Origin: Stegostoma tigrinum
Lineage: Eukaryota
Direction of reading: 5' to 3'
Assembly: GCF_030684315.1 (NCBI RefSeq)
Contig: NC_081387.1
Location: 26,964,647 to 27,028,646, forward strand
DNA: 64,000 nt
The notes below the pieces were generated by a model. It made no database searches. It was given only the letters and a program-made list of their open reading frames with translations, and was not told the origin of the DNA. Made by a program: the position numbers and the translations under genes. This document shows, one piece after another, positions 1,975 to 35,588 of this stretch (within the stretch, counting starts at the first letter, position 1; every line of letters begins with the position of its first letter).

Positions 1975-2493
1975 ATGCCGAAGGCTCCCCGAGCCTGGGC
2001 CGGCAACCCGGCGGCCAGGAGGCAGCAACAGCAGCCTCCTTCGCCTCAGCAGCGGCAGCAACAACAGAAGCAGCTGCGGCCTGACCGTCGCCAGCGGCGG
2101 CAGGAGGTGCGGATCTCGCAGCTGATCCTCCAGGCGCTGTCGGCCCGCAAGCAGCGGGGCGCCCTGTCGCTCAACTCCCTCCGCAAGGCGCTGCTGGACA
2201 GCGGCTACGACGTGGAGCGCAACAAGAACCGGGTGCAGCTGGCCATCCAGAACTTAGTCAGCAGCGGCTCGCTGGTACAGACCACGGCCACCGGCTCTCT
2301 CAAGCTCGGCGCCTGCCACAAGCAGGAGGCCGAACCACCTCCAGGGGCGGAGCCGCCGACAACCACGTCCCTAATCCCAGCCAAAGAAGGGAGTGTTTCT
2401 GCCTGCGCCAGGGACGAAGCTCAGCCACCCAATAAGAAACCCCGCAGGAGACGGGTCACGAGGAAGTCAAGGACGAAGAAGACTAGGAAGTGA
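1975..2493 (+). CDS. Histone H1-derived, protamine-like basic protein A (172 aa)
   Basis: Intronless ATG ORF. It has an H1 winged-helix-like segment ISQLILQALSARKQRGALSLNSLRKALLDSGYDVERNKNRVQLAIQNLVSSGSLVQT, a Q/R-rich N-terminus and a basic C-end (about 23 R, 14 K). TATA-like box upstream and histone stem-loop downstream. Confidence 0.85.
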   Translation: MPKAPRAWAGNPAARRQQQQPPSPQQRQQQQKQLRPDRRQRRQEVRISQLILQALSARKQRGALSLNSLRKALLDSGYDVERNKNRVQLAIQNLVSSGSLVQTTATGSLKLGACHKQEAEPPPGAEPPTTTSLIPAKEGSVSACARDEAQPPNKKPRRRRVTRKSRTKKTRK

Positions 2494-4970: not shown

Positions 4971-5945
4971 TCAGTATTTCCTCTGGCGGGCAGCCAACCT
5001 CTTCCCCCGGGATCCCCGCGGCTTGCCGCGGGAGGTGCCGTACCCGGGCAGCTTCCGGCCGCGATGCCGAGCCGCCGGCTTGTACTTAGCGTAGAGCCGG
5101 GCAGGCCTGCGGGTGGGAGCCGAGTAGTAATAGTAGTGGGTGGCAGCAGCGGCGGAGGTGCCGGAGCTGCTTTTCAGGCGGGCGGTCTTGGCCGGGCCCC
5201 GGCGGCCGGTGAAGCGCGGTTTGCGACGGCCTCCTCGTCCTCCGTTGCGGCGGTAGCGGGCTCGGTACTGCTGCTGGCGGCGTCGAACAGTGACCTTCCG
5301 ACCCTTGGACCCTGCTCCCGTCCATGCTCCTCCTTCGGAGGCGGCAGCGGCGTCTTTGCGCCGGGTGTATTTCTTCCGGAGCCGGGCCGGTGGCGATCTC
5401 CGGGAGACGGGGTGTTGGCGCTGGCGTTTGGCCGCCCGTTTCTTCTTGGCTTTGTCCTTCCTGGATCCTCCGCCGCCTCCTGCTCCTCCACCGCCCACCG
5501 CGCCCCGGTTCAAGCGGAACGAGCCCGAGGCCCCGATGCCCGCCGTCTGCACCAGGGAGCCTTTGAGGACCAGGTTCTTCACCGTCTGGTTGACCCGCGT
5601 GTTGTTGCGGCTCACGTCGCAGCCCTTGGCCGACAGAGCCTTCTTGAGGGCGGCCAGCGAGATGCCGCGCCGCTCCTTGGTGGCGGCCGCCACGTGGAGG
5701 ATCTGCTCGGCCATGGTAGGACCCCCCTTGCGGCGCTGCGCTAAGCGAGGCCGGAGCTGCTGCTGAGACTGCTGCGGCTGCTGTAGGTTCTGCTGCTGCG
5801 GGGACTGCTGCTGCTGGTTTTGCTTCCTTTTTTTCTTGCCCGCCGCCTTCTCGGCGCCCGTTCGAGGCTGAGAGCCGGGTGGCGTATCCCCTCCACCCGC
5901 GGCCGACTCGCCGGCGTCGTCCGCCTTCTGGCTGCCGTCAGCCAT
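4971..5945 (-). CDS. Histone H1-derived, protamine-like basic protein B (324 aa)
   Basis: Best-conserved H1 globular domain here: AEQILHVAAATKERRGISLAALKKALSAKGCDVSRNNTRVNQTVKNLVLKGSLVQTAGIGASGSFRLN. Q-rich N-terminus and a long R/G/Y-rich tail (about 49 R, 33 K, 11 Y). Stem-loop and HDE downstream. Confidence 0.9.
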   Translation of the reverse strand: MADGSQKADDAGESAAGGGDTPPGSQPRTGAEKAAGKKKRKQNQQQQSPQQQNLQQPQQSQQQLRPRLAQRRKGGPTMAEQILHVAAATKERRGISLAALKKALSAKGCDVSRNNTRVNQTVKNLVLKGSLVQTAGIGASGSFRLNRGAVGGGGAGGGGGSRKDKAKKKRAAKRQRQHPVSRRSPPARLRKKYTRRKDAAAASEGGAWTGAGSKGRKVTVRRRQQQYRARYRRNGGRGGRRKPRFTGRRGPAKTARLKSSSGTSAAAATHYYYYSAPTRRPARLYAKYKPAARHRGRKLPGYGTSRGKPRGSRGKRLAARQRKY

Positions 5946-6194: not shown

Positions 6195-8140
6195 AGATCC
6201 CGCCTCCTTTCATCTCCCCTCCCTCAAATTCCTCTTCCTCCAACCCTCCATTACTGTTCTCTTCTGCCATTTAATCGCGATCCGAACTCTGCGTCTGTTC
6301 GATTTATTAATCCCGGTTCTTCCTTCACTAATCTCCTCGCCTCCTATCCTTGGTTTCTTTTTGTCCCTCGATATTTCGACAGTTTTCGTCTTTTTAACAT
6401 AGGCGCCACCCAACGTGTTGAGTTTTCTCCAGCACCTTTCTGTGTTTATTTTGGCTTCAGAAAACTATAGGTACAGCTTTTTTTTTAATAGTTGCGTGAA
6501 TGTTCAGCAAGACATCAACATGGTATTAATTCATGTGAAAATTAATACTTAAACGAATACTTCAAATAGCACCCCCATTGTTACGTTAACCGTTTAATTT
6601 TGCAACAACCAGCTACTTAGACACTGAAAAATCCAGCTGTCCATTATTGTACCTGATAAATATAATTTTAAATTAGTAATTACTGTAATCATAATGAATC
6701 ATTGAATTGAGTGTTTATAATCTTGTCGCTACTGTTTGAATGAGCGGCTGAGGCAAATTCTATCGCAGCTTTGAAAAGAGAATTAGATTTGAGCTCCTTC
6801 GAAGAAGGACAGTGAAAGAGAGAGGAATGCGATCTTCAGAGCAGTCCTCAAACAACGGACCTCAAGGCATTGTCTGTTATTTTTAATGATATAGTTGGGT
6901 GATTCTACACTAAGCATTCACGCTGTTTCTCCACATGTTTTCTGTAACTTCAGGACTCTCGTTTAATTCCGTTTCAGGACTTTCCCATTCTCTGAAAGTC
7001 TACATCTGGCTTCTTCCCTGAATATCGTTTCTTGCTGGGCGGTTTGGAATCAGCAAGGGTCAATAATATCATACGGAAATTGAATGGGCCCAAGGGTGAA
7101 GTAGGCTTGCAGAGAGGGCCACGAGGATCCAGCGGAGGAAATGGGTTCAAATGCACTGGTCTGCAGAGAGCAGGCTCGATGGTGTGAATGGCCTCCTGTC
7201 CTGTACATGACGATGATTCCGCTGGAGTATTATTTATAATTCTGGGCTCGTTGGGAAAGATTTGAAGATTACAGAAGAGCTTTAAATGATTGCTCCCAGG
7301 AATGAGAGACGGAAGGGCACATGTAATGTGCAAATGAAGTAAATGTGATGTGAGTGGGTTTTTTGTTCCACATAATGAATGATCTGGGTCTGGATTGCAC
7401 TGCCAGCAAGCGTGCTGCAGGCACGTTCAATGATGCATTCCAGAATGAAAACCATGCAGGAGCCTGGTCCTGCGCCGGGAGACGGTGTAGACACGGCGGG
7501 CCGAGCAGCCTCCTTCTCCGCTGTAACAGTACTGTGATTTTATCATGCTACCCTTCGATATCACTTTATCCCCTAACGCTTCTAATCGAAGATGAAGTTT
7601 ATGGTCGATGACTGTATTCAGATACGACGCGCCATTTTATGTGATTCAATTCTACAATTCTTTCTTATTATTCTATTTTATGACCGCTGAATCGATTCTG
7701 TTAAAATTTCAGCCAACTGGCCAAATAAAACAACAATTTGAATTGGCAGTTCCTAGAGCGCAGGTATGCAAATGATAAATCAAACTTACGAATTTAAATG
7801 AAAATGCAATTTTTTTACGGGAAGTGGAGGGAGGAATGATAACGCTCATCTCCCCAATCCTGGTTCACTCTGACCCTACGGGTTCTCTTATCTACGAATC
7901 TATTCTGATTATTTTCTACTGATGCTGTGTTTGTTTTAAACGCAGTCGCATTCAGTGACAATCCAGAATTAGATCGGCAAGTAACTCCGCCGGGATTCGG
8001 CCAGCGCGGCAAGTGGGAAGGGCGTGACGGCAGGTTGCTCCTACCCCGTCCGCCCGCGCCCTTTATCTGGGCCGCGGCCGTCGCTGCTCCGTCATTCCTT
8101 CCGCCCGCTGCTCAGGCCGGGGTCGGTGACCGATGTGGTT

Positions 8141-8679
8141 GTTGTGGAGCCTGTGATTCCCGGTTTTCGCGGTTCCAACTCCATCACTTCGCGTCTCAAG
8201 CGTTTCCGTCGTCCTCCCAACTGGCGCCAAGAAAACGACGGCCTAACGAGTGCGGCAAACGGGCTGCGGTTGCCGAGTGGATCCTGGAGGCGGGAGCCGC
8301 CACCGGGGAATGCCAGCCGCCAGCCAAACCGAAGAAAACCCCTGCGACCGCGGGATACAAATCGAGGGGCGGTCCCAGCCAACTGGACCCGTCCTATAGT
8401 ACCGTGGCTAACAAAGGCTCCTCGGTCTCCTTGCACCCGCGCCTGGTGCTGAAAAAGAACAGAGAAAGACAGACTAGAAGGGCTGGGAGCAGCGCCAGAA
8501 GTATCAGGAAAGTGCCGGCAGCAGCCAAGATCTCGAAAACCTCGACAAAAATAACTGCGAGGAGTCCCAGGAAGAAAATAAAAGCAGTGGCCAAGACGAA
8601 AAAACCGTCCAGCCGGGCGACAACGACTGGGTGCAGACTCCGGGGGAGGAAGCAGGTAACTGCGATGAAGAGAAGATAA
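8141..8679 (+). pseudogene. Probable pseudogene of an H1-like gene (locus C), paralogue of gene D at 32166-32747
   Basis: VAEWILEAGAATGECQPPAK..KKTPATAGY..ANKGS aligns with gene D and has an H1-like K/A tail with SPRK. There is no in-frame start ATG: GTT GTG GAG CCT GTG stands where D has ATG GCG GAG ACT GTG, and in a different frame from the rest. The TATA is degraded to TTTATCT. The 3' UTR closely matches gene D. Confidence 0.7.
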
Positions 8680-8712
8680 AAGTGCAGGAGCAGAGACAGT
8701 TCAATGAGAAAA

Positions 8713-8755
8713 GGCTCTTTTGAGAGCCACTCGCATTTTCGACGTGAAAGAGCTT
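8713..8755 (+). terminator. Histone 3' stem-loop plus HDE (locus C)
   Basis: GGCTCTTTTGAGAGCC at 8713-8728 and AAAGAGCTT at 8747-8755. Confidence 0.9.
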
Positions 8756-32084: not shown

Positions 32085-32131
32085 GTAGCTTTTCTTTTGG
32101 TGACAATACTTGAGTGGCTCTGAAAAGAGCC
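32085..32131 (-). terminator. Histone 3' stem-loop plus purine-rich HDE (gene D)
   Basis: Minus strand GGCTCTTTTCAGAGCC at 32116-32131, with AAAAGAAAAGCTAC downstream. Confidence 0.88.
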
Positions 32132-32165
32132 TTTTTGTGTTGAGCTGTCTCTGCTCCTTGCACTT

Positions 32166-32747
32166 CTACCTTCTCTTCTTCCCCGTCGTCGCCCGTTTCC
32201 CCGCCGCCCGCTTGGGGGTTTTCCTGGCCTTGGCCGCCGTCCCCTTCCGGGGGCTTTTGGCCGCCGCTTTCTTGGTGCCTTTGGCCGCCGCCGCCCTTTT
32301 GGGGGCCGCTTTCCTCTTGGTTGCTCTTTTCTTGGGCCGATCCTGAACTTCTTCCTCCTTCACCTCCTGCTGCTGCCTCTGCTCCGGCTGCAAGGTGGAG
32401 GCGGAGGTTCCGGGCCCGCTTTCGCTCGCCGAGCCCCCCTTGTTGGCCGAAGAGCTACCGGGCGGCGGGTTGGGCCGACCCGGGCCACCCTTCTCCATCG
32501 GCTCGTAACCCGCGGCCGAGATGGTTTTCTTCAGAGACCCGCCGAGCTTGGCTGGCGCCTGGCGCTCCTTGGCAGCGGCCACCGCCTCCAGAATCTGCTC
32601 TGCCGCCGCGGTGGTAGCGCCACCTCCACCACCTTTCTGAGGTCGGTAAGCGGCTTTCTTCTTGGCGGCGGCGGCGGCTGGGACTGCGGCAGATTCCGGG
32701 GCAGTAGCCGCCGGGACGTCACCTCTAACAGGCACAGTCTCCGCCAT
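32166..32747 (-). CDS. Histone H1-like protein D (193 aa) with degenerate globular domain
   Basis: H1-type start MAETVP and K/A tail with SPRK and TPKR. AEQILEAVAAAKER..SLKKTISAAGY is retained, but helix 3 and the wing are P/G/S-rich. ATG at 32747 follows the TATA at 32807-32813. Confidence 0.85.
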   Translation of the reverse strand: MAETVPVRGDVPAATAPESAAVPAAAAAKKKAAYRPQKGGGGGATTAAAEQILEAVAAAKERQAPAKLGGSLKKTISAAGYEPMEKGGPGRPNPPPGSSSANKGGSASESGPGTSASTLQPEQRQQQEVKEEEVQDRPKKRATKRKAAPKRAAAAKGTKKAAAKSPRKGTAAKARKTPKRAAGKRATTGKKRR

Positions 32748-32806
32748 CAAACACCACAACGCACCCGTCGCAACCAACAACTGGCGGAGCCGCCGCGGCG
32801 ACGTTC

Positions 32807-32839
32807 TATATAAGCGAAGGGAGCGGACGGCGTGGAGAC
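32807..32839 (-). promoter_or_regulatory. Promoter of gene D: GTCTCCACGCCGTCCGC plus TTATATA
   Basis: Minus strand reads GTCTCCACGCCGTCCGCTCCCTTCGCTTATATAGA. Confidence 0.7.
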
Positions 32840-34795
32840 AACTTGCGGCTAATCTCCGCCCCCTCCGCCCCACCCACCGTGAGGTGGCCGCGCCCCCTCA
32901 TTTGGACCACGCCCGTAGCCGCTAGGCCACACCCCCTTCTCGTGTCACCTCTCGGAAATGAGACGGCACCAGGTTTATTTGAAGACGCGAGTTCCTGGTT
33001 CAAACCAGCTCAACACCGGCACCTCCATATCAGAAAGGAGCGACAGCAGCAAGTCTGTATCGTCGCTTCATCTTGTCAGTTATGTCTGTTCGCCAATTGT
33101 CTGACCCTTGTCTGTCTGCCTCTTGGCCGTTTATTACCTGAAACAAAAACCAAGTTGTCACTTAGTACTAACTGCTTCTACCTGCTTCCTGCGGGTCCGG
33201 CAGCATCTGTGAAGATGGAAATCAGAGTTAACGTTCCGGCTCCAGTGACTCCAGGTCTCAGAGTCCCCTTGTCATCTCCGATGGCGGAGACCGTGCCTTT
33301 CCTTTATTATCCGTTGTCTTGTCGTTTCTCTCTCTTGTATATAGAATCATAAAATCTACAGTGTGGGAACAGGCCATTCCGTCCATCGAGTCCAGACCTA
33401 CCCGCCAAAGGGTCCCATCCAGACCCACCCAATCTCTTGAACTTTGCATTTCTTATGGCTAACCCACTAATCTGCGCATCTTTGCACTGTCTTCCATGTT
33501 CTGGATGGGTCCTGACATGTGTTATCAATCTGCCCGTCTCCTAGACCATTTGCCTATTCCGTCGTTTACGCGTTTATTGCCTGTGTACATCTGTCCATTT
33601 TCTGTTTCCTTTTTTGTCTATTTCCTCTCTGTTATCTGCCTTTGTGTGACGGGGTCGGGGCTATGGTTAAATCGTCAAGATGCTTGCACGACTCAAGTCT
33701 GGCAAATGGGGGTAAACTGTCCAATTCTACAAAAGTCAATCGAAGAATTTTTTTCACCATTAAAACGCCAAACAAGGTCCCTGGGATTTGGTAAACGATG
33801 CCACTGCTTTCCCAAGAGTTTTTTTTTGTTTTTGTTTGTTTGTTCGATTACAAAACTTTTCAGAAAATGAATTGTAGGATCTTTCTCCCCGTAGGTTTTC
33901 CTTTGGCCGCTTCATAGTGCACGAGGTTTTAGGACGAGATTTCCACCTTAAACTTCCAACCTGGGATTAATGACACCACACTTGGTCTGTCTGTCTATGA
34001 AGCTGACAACGATTTCCTCGATTCGGCGGTTATGAATAAGTCTGCAATGTGGCTATGCTTTATCATTAGTCAGGAATCTCTCGACCACTTTGGACGAGAA
34101 CCTTTCTCTTACATTGTCGATGCTGGTGAAGCCTTCAGCGAGGATACTCGAGTCGCTTGGTCAATGTAGCCCATTGATATAGCCTGTGATAGAATGCAAT
34201 AAAAAATACTTGTAACTGGCATACATTTTATAGATTAAAACACACAAATTTACCTTCGCTGGTCATCGAGTAACAAAGAGCAACCTTTCGGCACTGTCCG
34301 GTTTGGAAGGGAGGGATAAAAGGCAAGGAAGAAAAGATGGTGTGGGGTTATAACCTGAGGTGAGGGTGAATGTAACAAAAGTGTTCGGGCAACAGCAGAG
34401 ACTAAACGCCAGCGGGGCAGTAACTTTTACCAGTTAGAAATGAGAGAAGTACGGGAAAGGGGGGAGGAGTATAAACTGGAAACTTTTAGTGAAAGCAGGG
34501 AAACTAGAGGACTGTGTAAATTTGGGCAACAAAACAAAATAGCGGGAAAAGCCCAGCAAGTCTAGCAGCAACAGTGGGTGAAATCTCGGATCGATGGAGC
34601 CTTCCTATGGCTTCACCTTCGTAGATGCCGCCAGACCTGCTGAGCTTTTCCAGCAAATTCTGTTTTCGTTCCTGGTTCACAGCATCCGCAGTTCTTTCGG
34701 TTCTTGGGGATGGTTAAAAAGGGGGAGGATGTGTCTCTCAGCCGCCGCCGGAGTCTGCCCGAAGGATCATCGCCGCTTTTCGGAGGCGGGTTTGT

Positions 34796-34895: not shown

Positions 34896-35588
34896 TTAAT
34901 TTCTGCGCCTGGTCCTAGTTTTTCTGGAGGTGACCGTTGTGTGGGTGGCGGTGGTCGCCTTTTCCCCGGCTCCTTTCCTGACCCTCGCCCGGGTGGTGGT
35001 CGTAGCGGCGGTGGGCTTGCCCGACTTCCTCTTCCGCCGGGGGCCGCTGCCGCCTCTCGCAGCCGGGGACCTCCTCCCCTTGACGGCGGCAGCGGTGGTC
35101 GCCCGCTGACCTCTCGCCCTGGTGCGCGTCTGCCTTTGCTGCTGCTTCTTCAGCTGCTGCTTCTGTCTCCGGCTGAGCCGCAGGCAGCCGCCTGCCTCCC
35201 CTCTCCCACCACCCCTGGTCCCCCGGCCCCGGGTCCGCACCAACGAGCCGTTGCGGACCAAGCCGCCGACTGCCGTGCGGAGCTGCGACTTGTTCTTCTC
35301 CACGTCGTAGCCGCTGGAGAGCAGGGCCTCCCGCAGGGAGGTCAGGGACACGCCGCCCGGCTGCTTGCGGGCCGACAGTGCCTGCAGGATCAGCTTATTG
35401 ATGCCCTGCATCCTACGGCGCCTCCTCCGCCGCCGGCCCTGCTCCAAGTGCTCGGGCAGCGGCAGCGGCGGCAGCACGGCCCGCATCTGCGGCCGCTTTT
35501 TCCGCCGCCGCTTCCTGCTGGCTCCCCCGCAGCCGCGGCCCGCCCCCTTCTTTTTCTTCCGCTGCTGTGGGCCGCCGGTGGTCACCAT
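34896..35588 (-). CDS. Histone H1-derived, protamine-like basic protein E (230 aa)
   Basis: Globular segment LILQALSARKQPGGVSLTSLREALLSSGYDVEKNKSQLRTAVGGLVRNGSLVRT is paralogous to gene A. It has an R8 run and about 47 R, 21 K. Stem-loop downstream. Confidence 0.87.
   Translation of the reverse strand: MVTTGGPQQRKKKKGAGRGCGGASRKRRRKKRPQMRAVLPPLPLPEHLEQGRRRRRRRRMQGINKLILQALSARKQPGGVSLTSLREALLSSGYDVEKNKSQLRTAVGGLVRNGSLVRTRGRGTRGGGRGEAGGCLRLSRRQKQQLKKQQQRQTRTRARGQRATTAAAVKGRRSPAARGGSGPRRKRKSGKPTAATTTTRARVRKGAGEKATTATHTTVTSRKTRTRRRN

Follow-up and report, generated by a model that had tools for sequence, protein, structure and literature searches.

The DNA analysed here (the window, 64,000 nt of the Stegostoma tigrinum genome) is part of a histone cluster on contig C44 that holds H2A, H4 and the arginine-rich H1 genes A, B and E together with gene D, an H1-derived gene that is the subject of this report. 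The canonical lysine-rich H1 genes are located elsewhere, in arrays on contigs C56 and C62. The following features were identified at D.

32166..32747, minus strand: intronless, H1-derived open reading frame of gene D, 193 aa (from the sequence; the family profile matches H1.2, H1.3 and GH1 in PDB)
32806..32812, minus strand: TATA box TATATAG, 65 nt 5′ of the ATG (from the sequence)
32821..32842, minus strand: 22-nt proximal promoter element common to canonical H1 genes (single match in the window)
32856..32870, minus strand: two GC boxes, GGGCGG (from the sequence)
32114..32134, minus strand: histone 3′ stem-loop, perfect match (stem-loop pattern search)
32087..32098, minus strand: candidate U7 downstream element, a purine-rich stretch 15 nt past the stem-loop (from the sequence)

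The open reading frame, TATA box and stem-loop, described as intact in the first-pass annotation, were all confirmed at these positions. The stem-loop pattern matched seven times in the window against 0 expected from 100 shuffles. The purine-rich stretch may serve as the U7 downstream element. Neither an AAACACA box nor CCAAT was found within 260 nt at the D promoter. CpG observed/expected was 0.87 in D and 0.45 in the flank. Being intronless and clustered, with a 3′ stem-loop and histone promoter elements, D has the features of a replication-dependent histone gene. A frameshifted winged helix in the D region was considered and rejected; the core is not a frameshift artefact, because no other frame of the region encodes a winged helix. 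A single contig from public DNA run X4 (record 12, possibly the same sample) spans the whole D gene with no frameshift. D does not have the marks of a pseudogene: helix 1 is constrained, and the frames are open in both copies here and stay open in the orthologue models, so the stops or frameshifts named in the annotation as grounds for refutation did not appear. Run X1, from a related species and RNA only by guess, gave a 232-nt contig over the D 3′ end, but it also covers two intergenic stretches and none of H4 and is therefore no evidence of D expression. The X1 contig differs from D at 2 of 67 coding bases and at 16 listed of 167 flanking bases, a difference that is not significant (p = 0.11).

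A second copy, D′ (L046:5494-6084, plus strand; C44:26720494), lies about 276 kb from D and has three extra alanines and three substitutions relative to it. The two are 97% identical over only about 800 nt, from promoter to stem-loop. As the similarity ends shortly beyond the promoter element on one side and the stem-loop on the other, it suggests gene conversion or a recent duplication. A paralogue, D2 (L044:4844-5455, minus strand; C44 about 26699850), is intact and has a degenerate core, lacks the acidic linker described below, and carries a stem-loop with one change; a divergent H2B variant with a stem-loop adjoins it (L044:3580-3966, minus strand). The window also holds a third degenerate-core H1 copy at 7990-8730 (plus strand), with an open frame at 8254-8676, a stem-loop at 8710-8730, a weakened TATA box, no in-frame ATG and a high CpG content (observed/expected 1.0). 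The annotation of its closest relative, Chiloscyllium punctatum GCC21450 (P0024), does include a start codon. Two C44 sub-clusters hold at least seven more divergent H1 genes with stem-loops, mostly arginine-rich (window 1975-2493, 4971-5945 and 34896-35588; L045, L051 and L041), and one pair among them is nearly identical and inverted. The C56/C62 arrays gave about 65 near-identical canonical H1 matches, of which copy L013 is frameshifted; their globular domain seems further from tetrapod somatic H1 than that of the C44 genes.

The 22-nt promoter element lies 30 nt upstream of the D TATA box, and its one match in the window compares with 0 by chance. When 58 loci were scanned with one degenerate position allowed, the element was present in D, in D′ and in 23/23 canonical H1 loci fetched from C56/C62. 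The D element is identical to that of L012 at 21/22 positions, where the best shuffled sequence reached 14. The other H1 genes of the C44 cluster scored 12-16/22, close to the best shuffled scores (14-17), and for most of them the match lies at the equivalent position 5′ of TATA. The upstream AC box of the canonical H1 gene is absent from D. The element may resemble the H4 site II/HiNF-P element; the H4 promoter of the window matched the 22-mer only at chance level. No published sequence confirming a HiNF-P identity was found in the literature searched, including the available portion of PMC12979687. The shared promoter element and stem-loop suggest that dividing cells would produce D together with canonical H1.

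The D family descends from the H1 globular domain. Its profile can be aligned to chicken GH1 and human H1.2/H1.3 over the entire globular domain, without gaps and with an E value of 3.2e-10 against chicken GH1 (PDB 1ghc) in HMMER, and profile-profile alignment (hhalign) to folded shark H1s gave a probability of 98.9% (E 2.7e-17). Both alignments reproduced the residue register between genes B and D that the annotation had proposed. By the HMM score check that had been suggested, the family nevertheless fell short of the Pfam linker histone model: 0/23 family proteins reached the PF00538 cut-off of 22.4 bits, only 4/23 gave sub-threshold matches (best 21.3 bits; 14.8-21.3 for the Heptranchias and Pristis members), and gene D itself had no Pfam match at E up to 10, whereas A, B, E and the folded elasmobranch type F pass PF00538. 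The parts of the D protein are listed below.

32631..32663, minus strand: basic motif KKKAAYRPQKG, residues 29-39 (shark-ray identity 0.83, 40 pairs)
32559..32618, minus strand: helix 1 and loop 1 of the former globular domain, residues 44-63, retained (AlphaFold helix 44-61; shark-ray identity 0.86)
32502..32549, minus strand: helix 2 region, residues 67-82, still with its hydrophobic pattern but not predicted as a helix (core alignment; AlphaFold)
32439..32477, minus strand: former helix 3, residues 91-103, with P, G, S and A in place of the core residues (core alignment, codons)
32385..32438, minus strand: former wing, residues 104-121, degenerate (identity 0.36, tail-like)
32337..32384, minus strand: acidic/Gln linker, residues 122-137 (net charge)
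32169..32336, minus strand: short K/A/R C-terminal tail, residues 138-193, with two S/TPxK/R sites (from the sequence)

To describe the core, we used 18 positions at which at least 80% of 13 folded H1s have a hydrophobic residue, nine in the front half (helix 1/2) and nine in the back half (helix 3/wing). On average, 7.5 front and 1.8 back positions are still hydrophobic in the D-types (n = 13), 7.8 and 2.8 in D2 (n = 6), and 8.7 and 8.6 in the folded proteins (n = 13). D itself keeps 7/9 and 0/9, respectively (1/9 back in an alternative wing register). Only the end of loop 2, helix 3 and the wing (residues ~83-121) are affected, and the 7/9 retained lie in residues 44-82; the first-pass claim of a winged-helix core unfolded within an intact gene thus holds for the back half and fails for the front half. 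The ex-helix 3/wing segment of D contains six prolines, compared with 0-1 in the 13 folded H1s. Core position 43 is non-hydrophobic in 13/13 D-types. The ex-helix 3 residues still conserved among D-types are P43 (12/13), N52 (12/13) and K53 (13/13), and L50 is retained in 7/13. Hydrophobic moments did not cleanly separate the D-types from the folded group.

The annotation had read the replacements as hydrophobic residues turned into P, S or A through second-position T-to-C changes. The codons at the former back-half core positions of D (CCG, CCC, GGT, TCG, GCC, TCG, GCG, ACC and CCG) agree with this, with C in the second position in 8/9. The alternative that it named, GC-biased substitution, is not needed, as GC3 (0.87) and GC1 (0.55) of the ex-helix 3/wing segment lie within the ranges of eight folded paralogues (0.53-0.97 and 0.50-0.73), and only second-position T has collapsed, to 0.03 against 0.22-0.35 in the folded paralogues. 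This collapse is the genetic-code signature of losing hydrophobic residues. The codon pattern reflects hydrophobic loss at the protein level; GC pressure may have steered the choice of replacements but does not explain the split between front and back.

AlphaFold2, run on D with 16 family sequences, predicted one helix (44-61) and no helix 2 or 3, with a pTM of 0.18 and block pLDDT values of 45-67. The model had no match in PDB, as is expected of a low-confidence model. For the folded sister type F (13 sequences), used as a control, three helices were predicted (blocks at pLDDT 79-87) and the best matches were the H1 chains of chromatosomes; the control model is also without the wing (pLDDT ~45), which is degenerate in F of the source genome. 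The pLDDT check proposed in the annotation therefore came out as foreseen for helices 2 and 3 and otherwise for helix 1. By prediction, D probably does not form a three-helix winged helix, though helix 1 is still expected in it. A rather unlikely alternative is that the domain is destabilised and not abolished: a shortened helix 3, starting from the conserved proline, would refold onto helices 1 and 2 on nucleosomes and yield a weak, dyad-positioned H1, with carpet-shark and catshark versions such as D at the extreme of a gradient. The gap-free GH1 alignment, the preserved core faces of helices 1 and 2, the near-invariant N52 and K53, the partly retained L50 and the sub-threshold Pfam scores of Heptranchias and Pristis are in keeping with such a residual fold, as is the Atlas model of the Heptranchias relative P0007 (TM 0.66 to histone H1.3 over residues 41-122; pTM 0.27, mean pLDDT 0.47). 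Low in confidence as it is, this H1-like model suggests that the least derived members, such as Heptranchias, may retain a labile fold. For D, the residual fold is at odds with the empty back core, the six prolines, the single predicted helix and a dN/dS of about 1 in the segment (see below).

Relatives of D were found in seven shark genera (Scyliorhinus, Heterodontus, Pristiophorus, Heptranchias, Chiloscyllium, Carcharodon and Stegostoma, the source genome) and four ray and skate genera (Pristis, Mobula, Leucoraja and Rhinoraja), under the database labels 'histone H1-like' or 'uncharacterized'. A single-sequence search with D gave five matches among 8000 scored, all from sharks; a profile search gave 17, all from sharks, rays or skates; and an exhaustive search of representatives gave 23, with a gradual transition to ordinary H1. 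The protein-search matches included no member from holocephalans or bony fishes, which is not proof of absence. P0006, P0015, P0018, P0021, P0027, P0028, P0030 and the near-identical D′ were excluded from the counts and the tree. P0006 (Scyliorhinus canicula XP_038672875, 'dapper homolog 3-like') is a fused gene model of three neighbouring H1 genes, the last being the D orthologue. P0015, P0018 and P0021 have large internal deletions, which cut helix 1 in two of the three; P0015 (Chiloscyllium punctatum chiPu_0020038) is the closest to D by identity and lacks about 75 central residues, either because they are truly deleted or because the gene model is wrong. A tree of 34 cores placed the 21 rows with a degenerate core on one side of a branch and the 13 folded rows on the other (support 100/98), and D and D2 were not cleanly separate clades. 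A single origin of the degenerate-core family is likely, and no more than likely because the root of the tree is not fixed.

Conservation differs sharply along the protein. Between shark and ray D-types (40 pairs, not independent), identity was 0.83 in the KKKxxYRPQKG motif and 0.86 in helix 1, falling to 0.59 in helix 2 (residues 67-86), 0.46-0.49 in ex-helix 3, 0.36 in the ex-wing, 0.26 in the linker, and 0.37 and 0.43 in the tails (C-tail 0.43). D is thus not the 'tail-only' linker histone of the first-pass annotation, because its basic motif and helix 1 are the most conserved part. In folded type F, helix 1 identity was 0.94 and helix 3 identity 0.33-0.50, so that the D-types are no lower in the latter. 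For dN/dS, within-genome paralogues were compared, over 21-31 codons of one pair (D/D2) near saturation. The ratio was ~0.16 in the motif and helix 1, 0.5 in helix 2 and 0.98 in ex-helix 3/wing. The motif and helix 1 (16/24 synonymous, 17/69 non-synonymous; p = 0.0004) were the sole segment departing from neutrality; the ex-helix 3/wing counts were 10/21 and 28/57 (p = 1). Over helix 3/wing, the folded control pair F/B2 gave 0.18 (16/23 synonymous, 20/64 non-synonymous; p = 0.003), and the folded pair A/E also gave about 1.1. Codon comparisons of D/F and D2/F were saturated in part. On this small, near-saturated paralogue comparison, the motif and helix 1 of D appear to be under purifying selection and the helix 3/wing segment relaxed; the relaxed selection proposed earlier therefore applies to the ex-helix 3/wing segment and not to the gene as a whole.

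These data bear on whether D is simply a slowly decaying, near-neutral gene whose frame is held by gene conversion in a GC-rich cluster while GC bias turns T into C. The short tract of D/D′ identity, the dN/dS of about 1 in the former helix 3/wing, and the copies that are deleted or have no ATG would fit decay. The reading is largely refuted and highly improbable given a helix 1 that is 86% identical between sharks and rays with a significant non-synonymous deficit, GC3 and GC1 values not above those of the folded paralogues, and a preserved promoter element. In a neutral simulation with assumed rates, moreover, the D frame survived 0.2 substitutions/site in 3.6% of 2000 runs per lineage (0.1% with assumed indels).

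The acidic patch followed by a K/A tail with CDK sites, noted at first pass, is present. The tail, 56 residues long, is of the basic K/A/P type expected of H1, with sites SPRK at 165 and TPKR at 177, and is shorter and less charged than the canonical one. Net charge over 20 residues in the linker region was −5 to −11 in seven other shark D-types, 0 in D and −1 to +3 in five batoid D-types. D contains 14% K and 7.8% R with a net charge of 0.14 per residue; the D-types span 0.11-0.16, compared with 0.28 for canonical H1. Their R/(K+R) of 0.32-0.44 lies between canonical H1 (0.12) and the folded neighbours B, A, E and F (0.58-0.69).

This composition weighs on the route to protamines that had been drawn as a parallel, in which D would be a spermatid protein, basic and dominated by its tail, that helps to replace sperm histones. 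The neighbours of D are indeed divergent H1 genes rich in arginine, in a cluster separate from the canonical arrays, and the R/(K+R) of D exceeds that of canonical H1. Mammalian HILS1 (H1.9), listed here with H1T2 (H1.7), offers a likeness in its divergent globular domain and poor DNA condensation (PMC6069787, available part). HILS1 is assigned a full globular domain, however, is encoded within the intron of a different gene and has no S/TPxK sites, whereas D is a clustered stem-loop gene. Neither HILS1 nor H1T2 was among the sequence-search matches of the D family; one Atlas structure row named 'testis-specific H1 histone-like' fell under the bar for naming. Protamine-like (PL) proteins are, like D, H1-derived and mostly disordered, and some mollusc PL fragments are without the winged-helix domain. 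According to the accessible text of PMC13148410, however, PL proteins are dense in arginine and lysine and retain the winged helix, the basic tail being cleaved off in some taxa. The low net charge of D, without high Arg+Lys density or arginine enrichment, and the acidic linker in sharks are opposite to protamine chemistry; R/(K+R) is below that of B, A, E and F, and D has the stem-loop and canonical H1 promoter element, of which its arginine-rich neighbours reach only 12-16/22. A spermatid protein on the way to protamines is accordingly quite improbable and the parallel is not supported, although a germline role of D as a loosening H1 would be compatible with the same evidence. From their sequences, the arginine-rich C44 H1 genes appear to be better protamine-like candidates than D.

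We therefore favour, at a probability of roughly 0.55, the reading that D belongs, as an intact gene, to an H1 subfamily of sharks and rays in which the helix 3/wing core is lost and the motif and helix 1 are kept, and that its product is likely a mostly unfolded, weak-binding linker protein unable to lock onto the dyad. Chromatosome structures show contacts of the wing and the beginning of helix 2 with the dyad, and of loop 1 and helix 3 with the two linkers (PMC13510831, available part). Because D has lost helix 3 and the wing, two of the three chromatosome DNA contacts would be gone and dyad recognition with them. The short tail with half the usual charge density, and the acidic linker beside it in sharks, would make DNA binding loose. 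The KKKxxYRPQK-helix 1 segment could be a docking site for a protein partner that folds on binding, inherited from folded type F; an import factor or an H1 chaperone is a first guess for the partner, and the KKKAAYRPQKG motif is a possible import or docking signal. The motif and helix 1, including surface residues, are common to type F, which suggests that the partner interaction is older than the unfolding. The role of the D product would then be to modulate normal H1 or compete with it, not to compact chromatin. In its strongest and more tentative form, which we consider possible but doubtful, this would be an ancient subfamily in which a winged helix became a single docking helix, co-expressed with canonical H1 as a decoy or anti-H1, taking up H1 partners or linker DNA but leaving the nucleosome unsealed.

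Among known proteins, the replication-dependent vertebrate H1s (PF00538, 1ghc, human H1.2/H1.3) share with D the collinear former globular domain, the intronless, clustered stem-loop gene, the promoter element and the K/A tail with S/TPxK/R sites; D differs in the lost helix 3/wing core, the score below the Pfam cut-off, the half charge density, the acidic linker and the short tail. The H1s of Tetrahymena macronuclei and other protists that have no globular domain are similarly basic, largely disordered and without a working winged helix, but in the available part of PMC6615755 the domain was never there or is wholly lacking, whereas D descends from a winged-helix H1, keeps the domain length and conserves helix 1. 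The nearest folded group in the midpoint-drawn tree is elasmobranch type F (Heterodontus XP_067865052, Leucoraja XP_055486377 and C44 locus L054), which has a related basic motif (KKK..YR..K) and the VAEQI..AVAATKER helix 1 in common with D but keeps the helix 3 hydrophobics, passes Pfam and folds in AlphaFold. The type F gene at L054:1366-2130 (minus strand) has a poly-proline N-terminus and no stem-loop within 130 nt of the stop. No published description of the D family was found in the literature searched, which lay largely outside subscription journals, older dogfish sperm-protein work included; the available part of PMC13251019 contained nothing on shark H1. All metazoan H1s are said to be tripartite with a winged-helix domain in the accessible text of a 2026 review (PMC13510831). 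On its sequence and models, the D family would be an H1 descendant that fails fold-based tests of membership.

Sharks and rays split more than 250 million years ago. A vertebrate H1 family without helix 3 and wing, kept since before that split, would amount to a natural deletion experiment, separating the H1 roles exerted through the tail and helix 1 from those that need dyad binding. With type F folded, Heptranchias intermediate and D at the extreme, it may also provide a graded series for studying the unfolding of a domain under selection, and the conserved surface of helix 1 points to an H1 interaction other than DNA binding. If the decoy reading is true, an anti-H1 would have arisen in a lineage where every H1 was believed to keep its fold.
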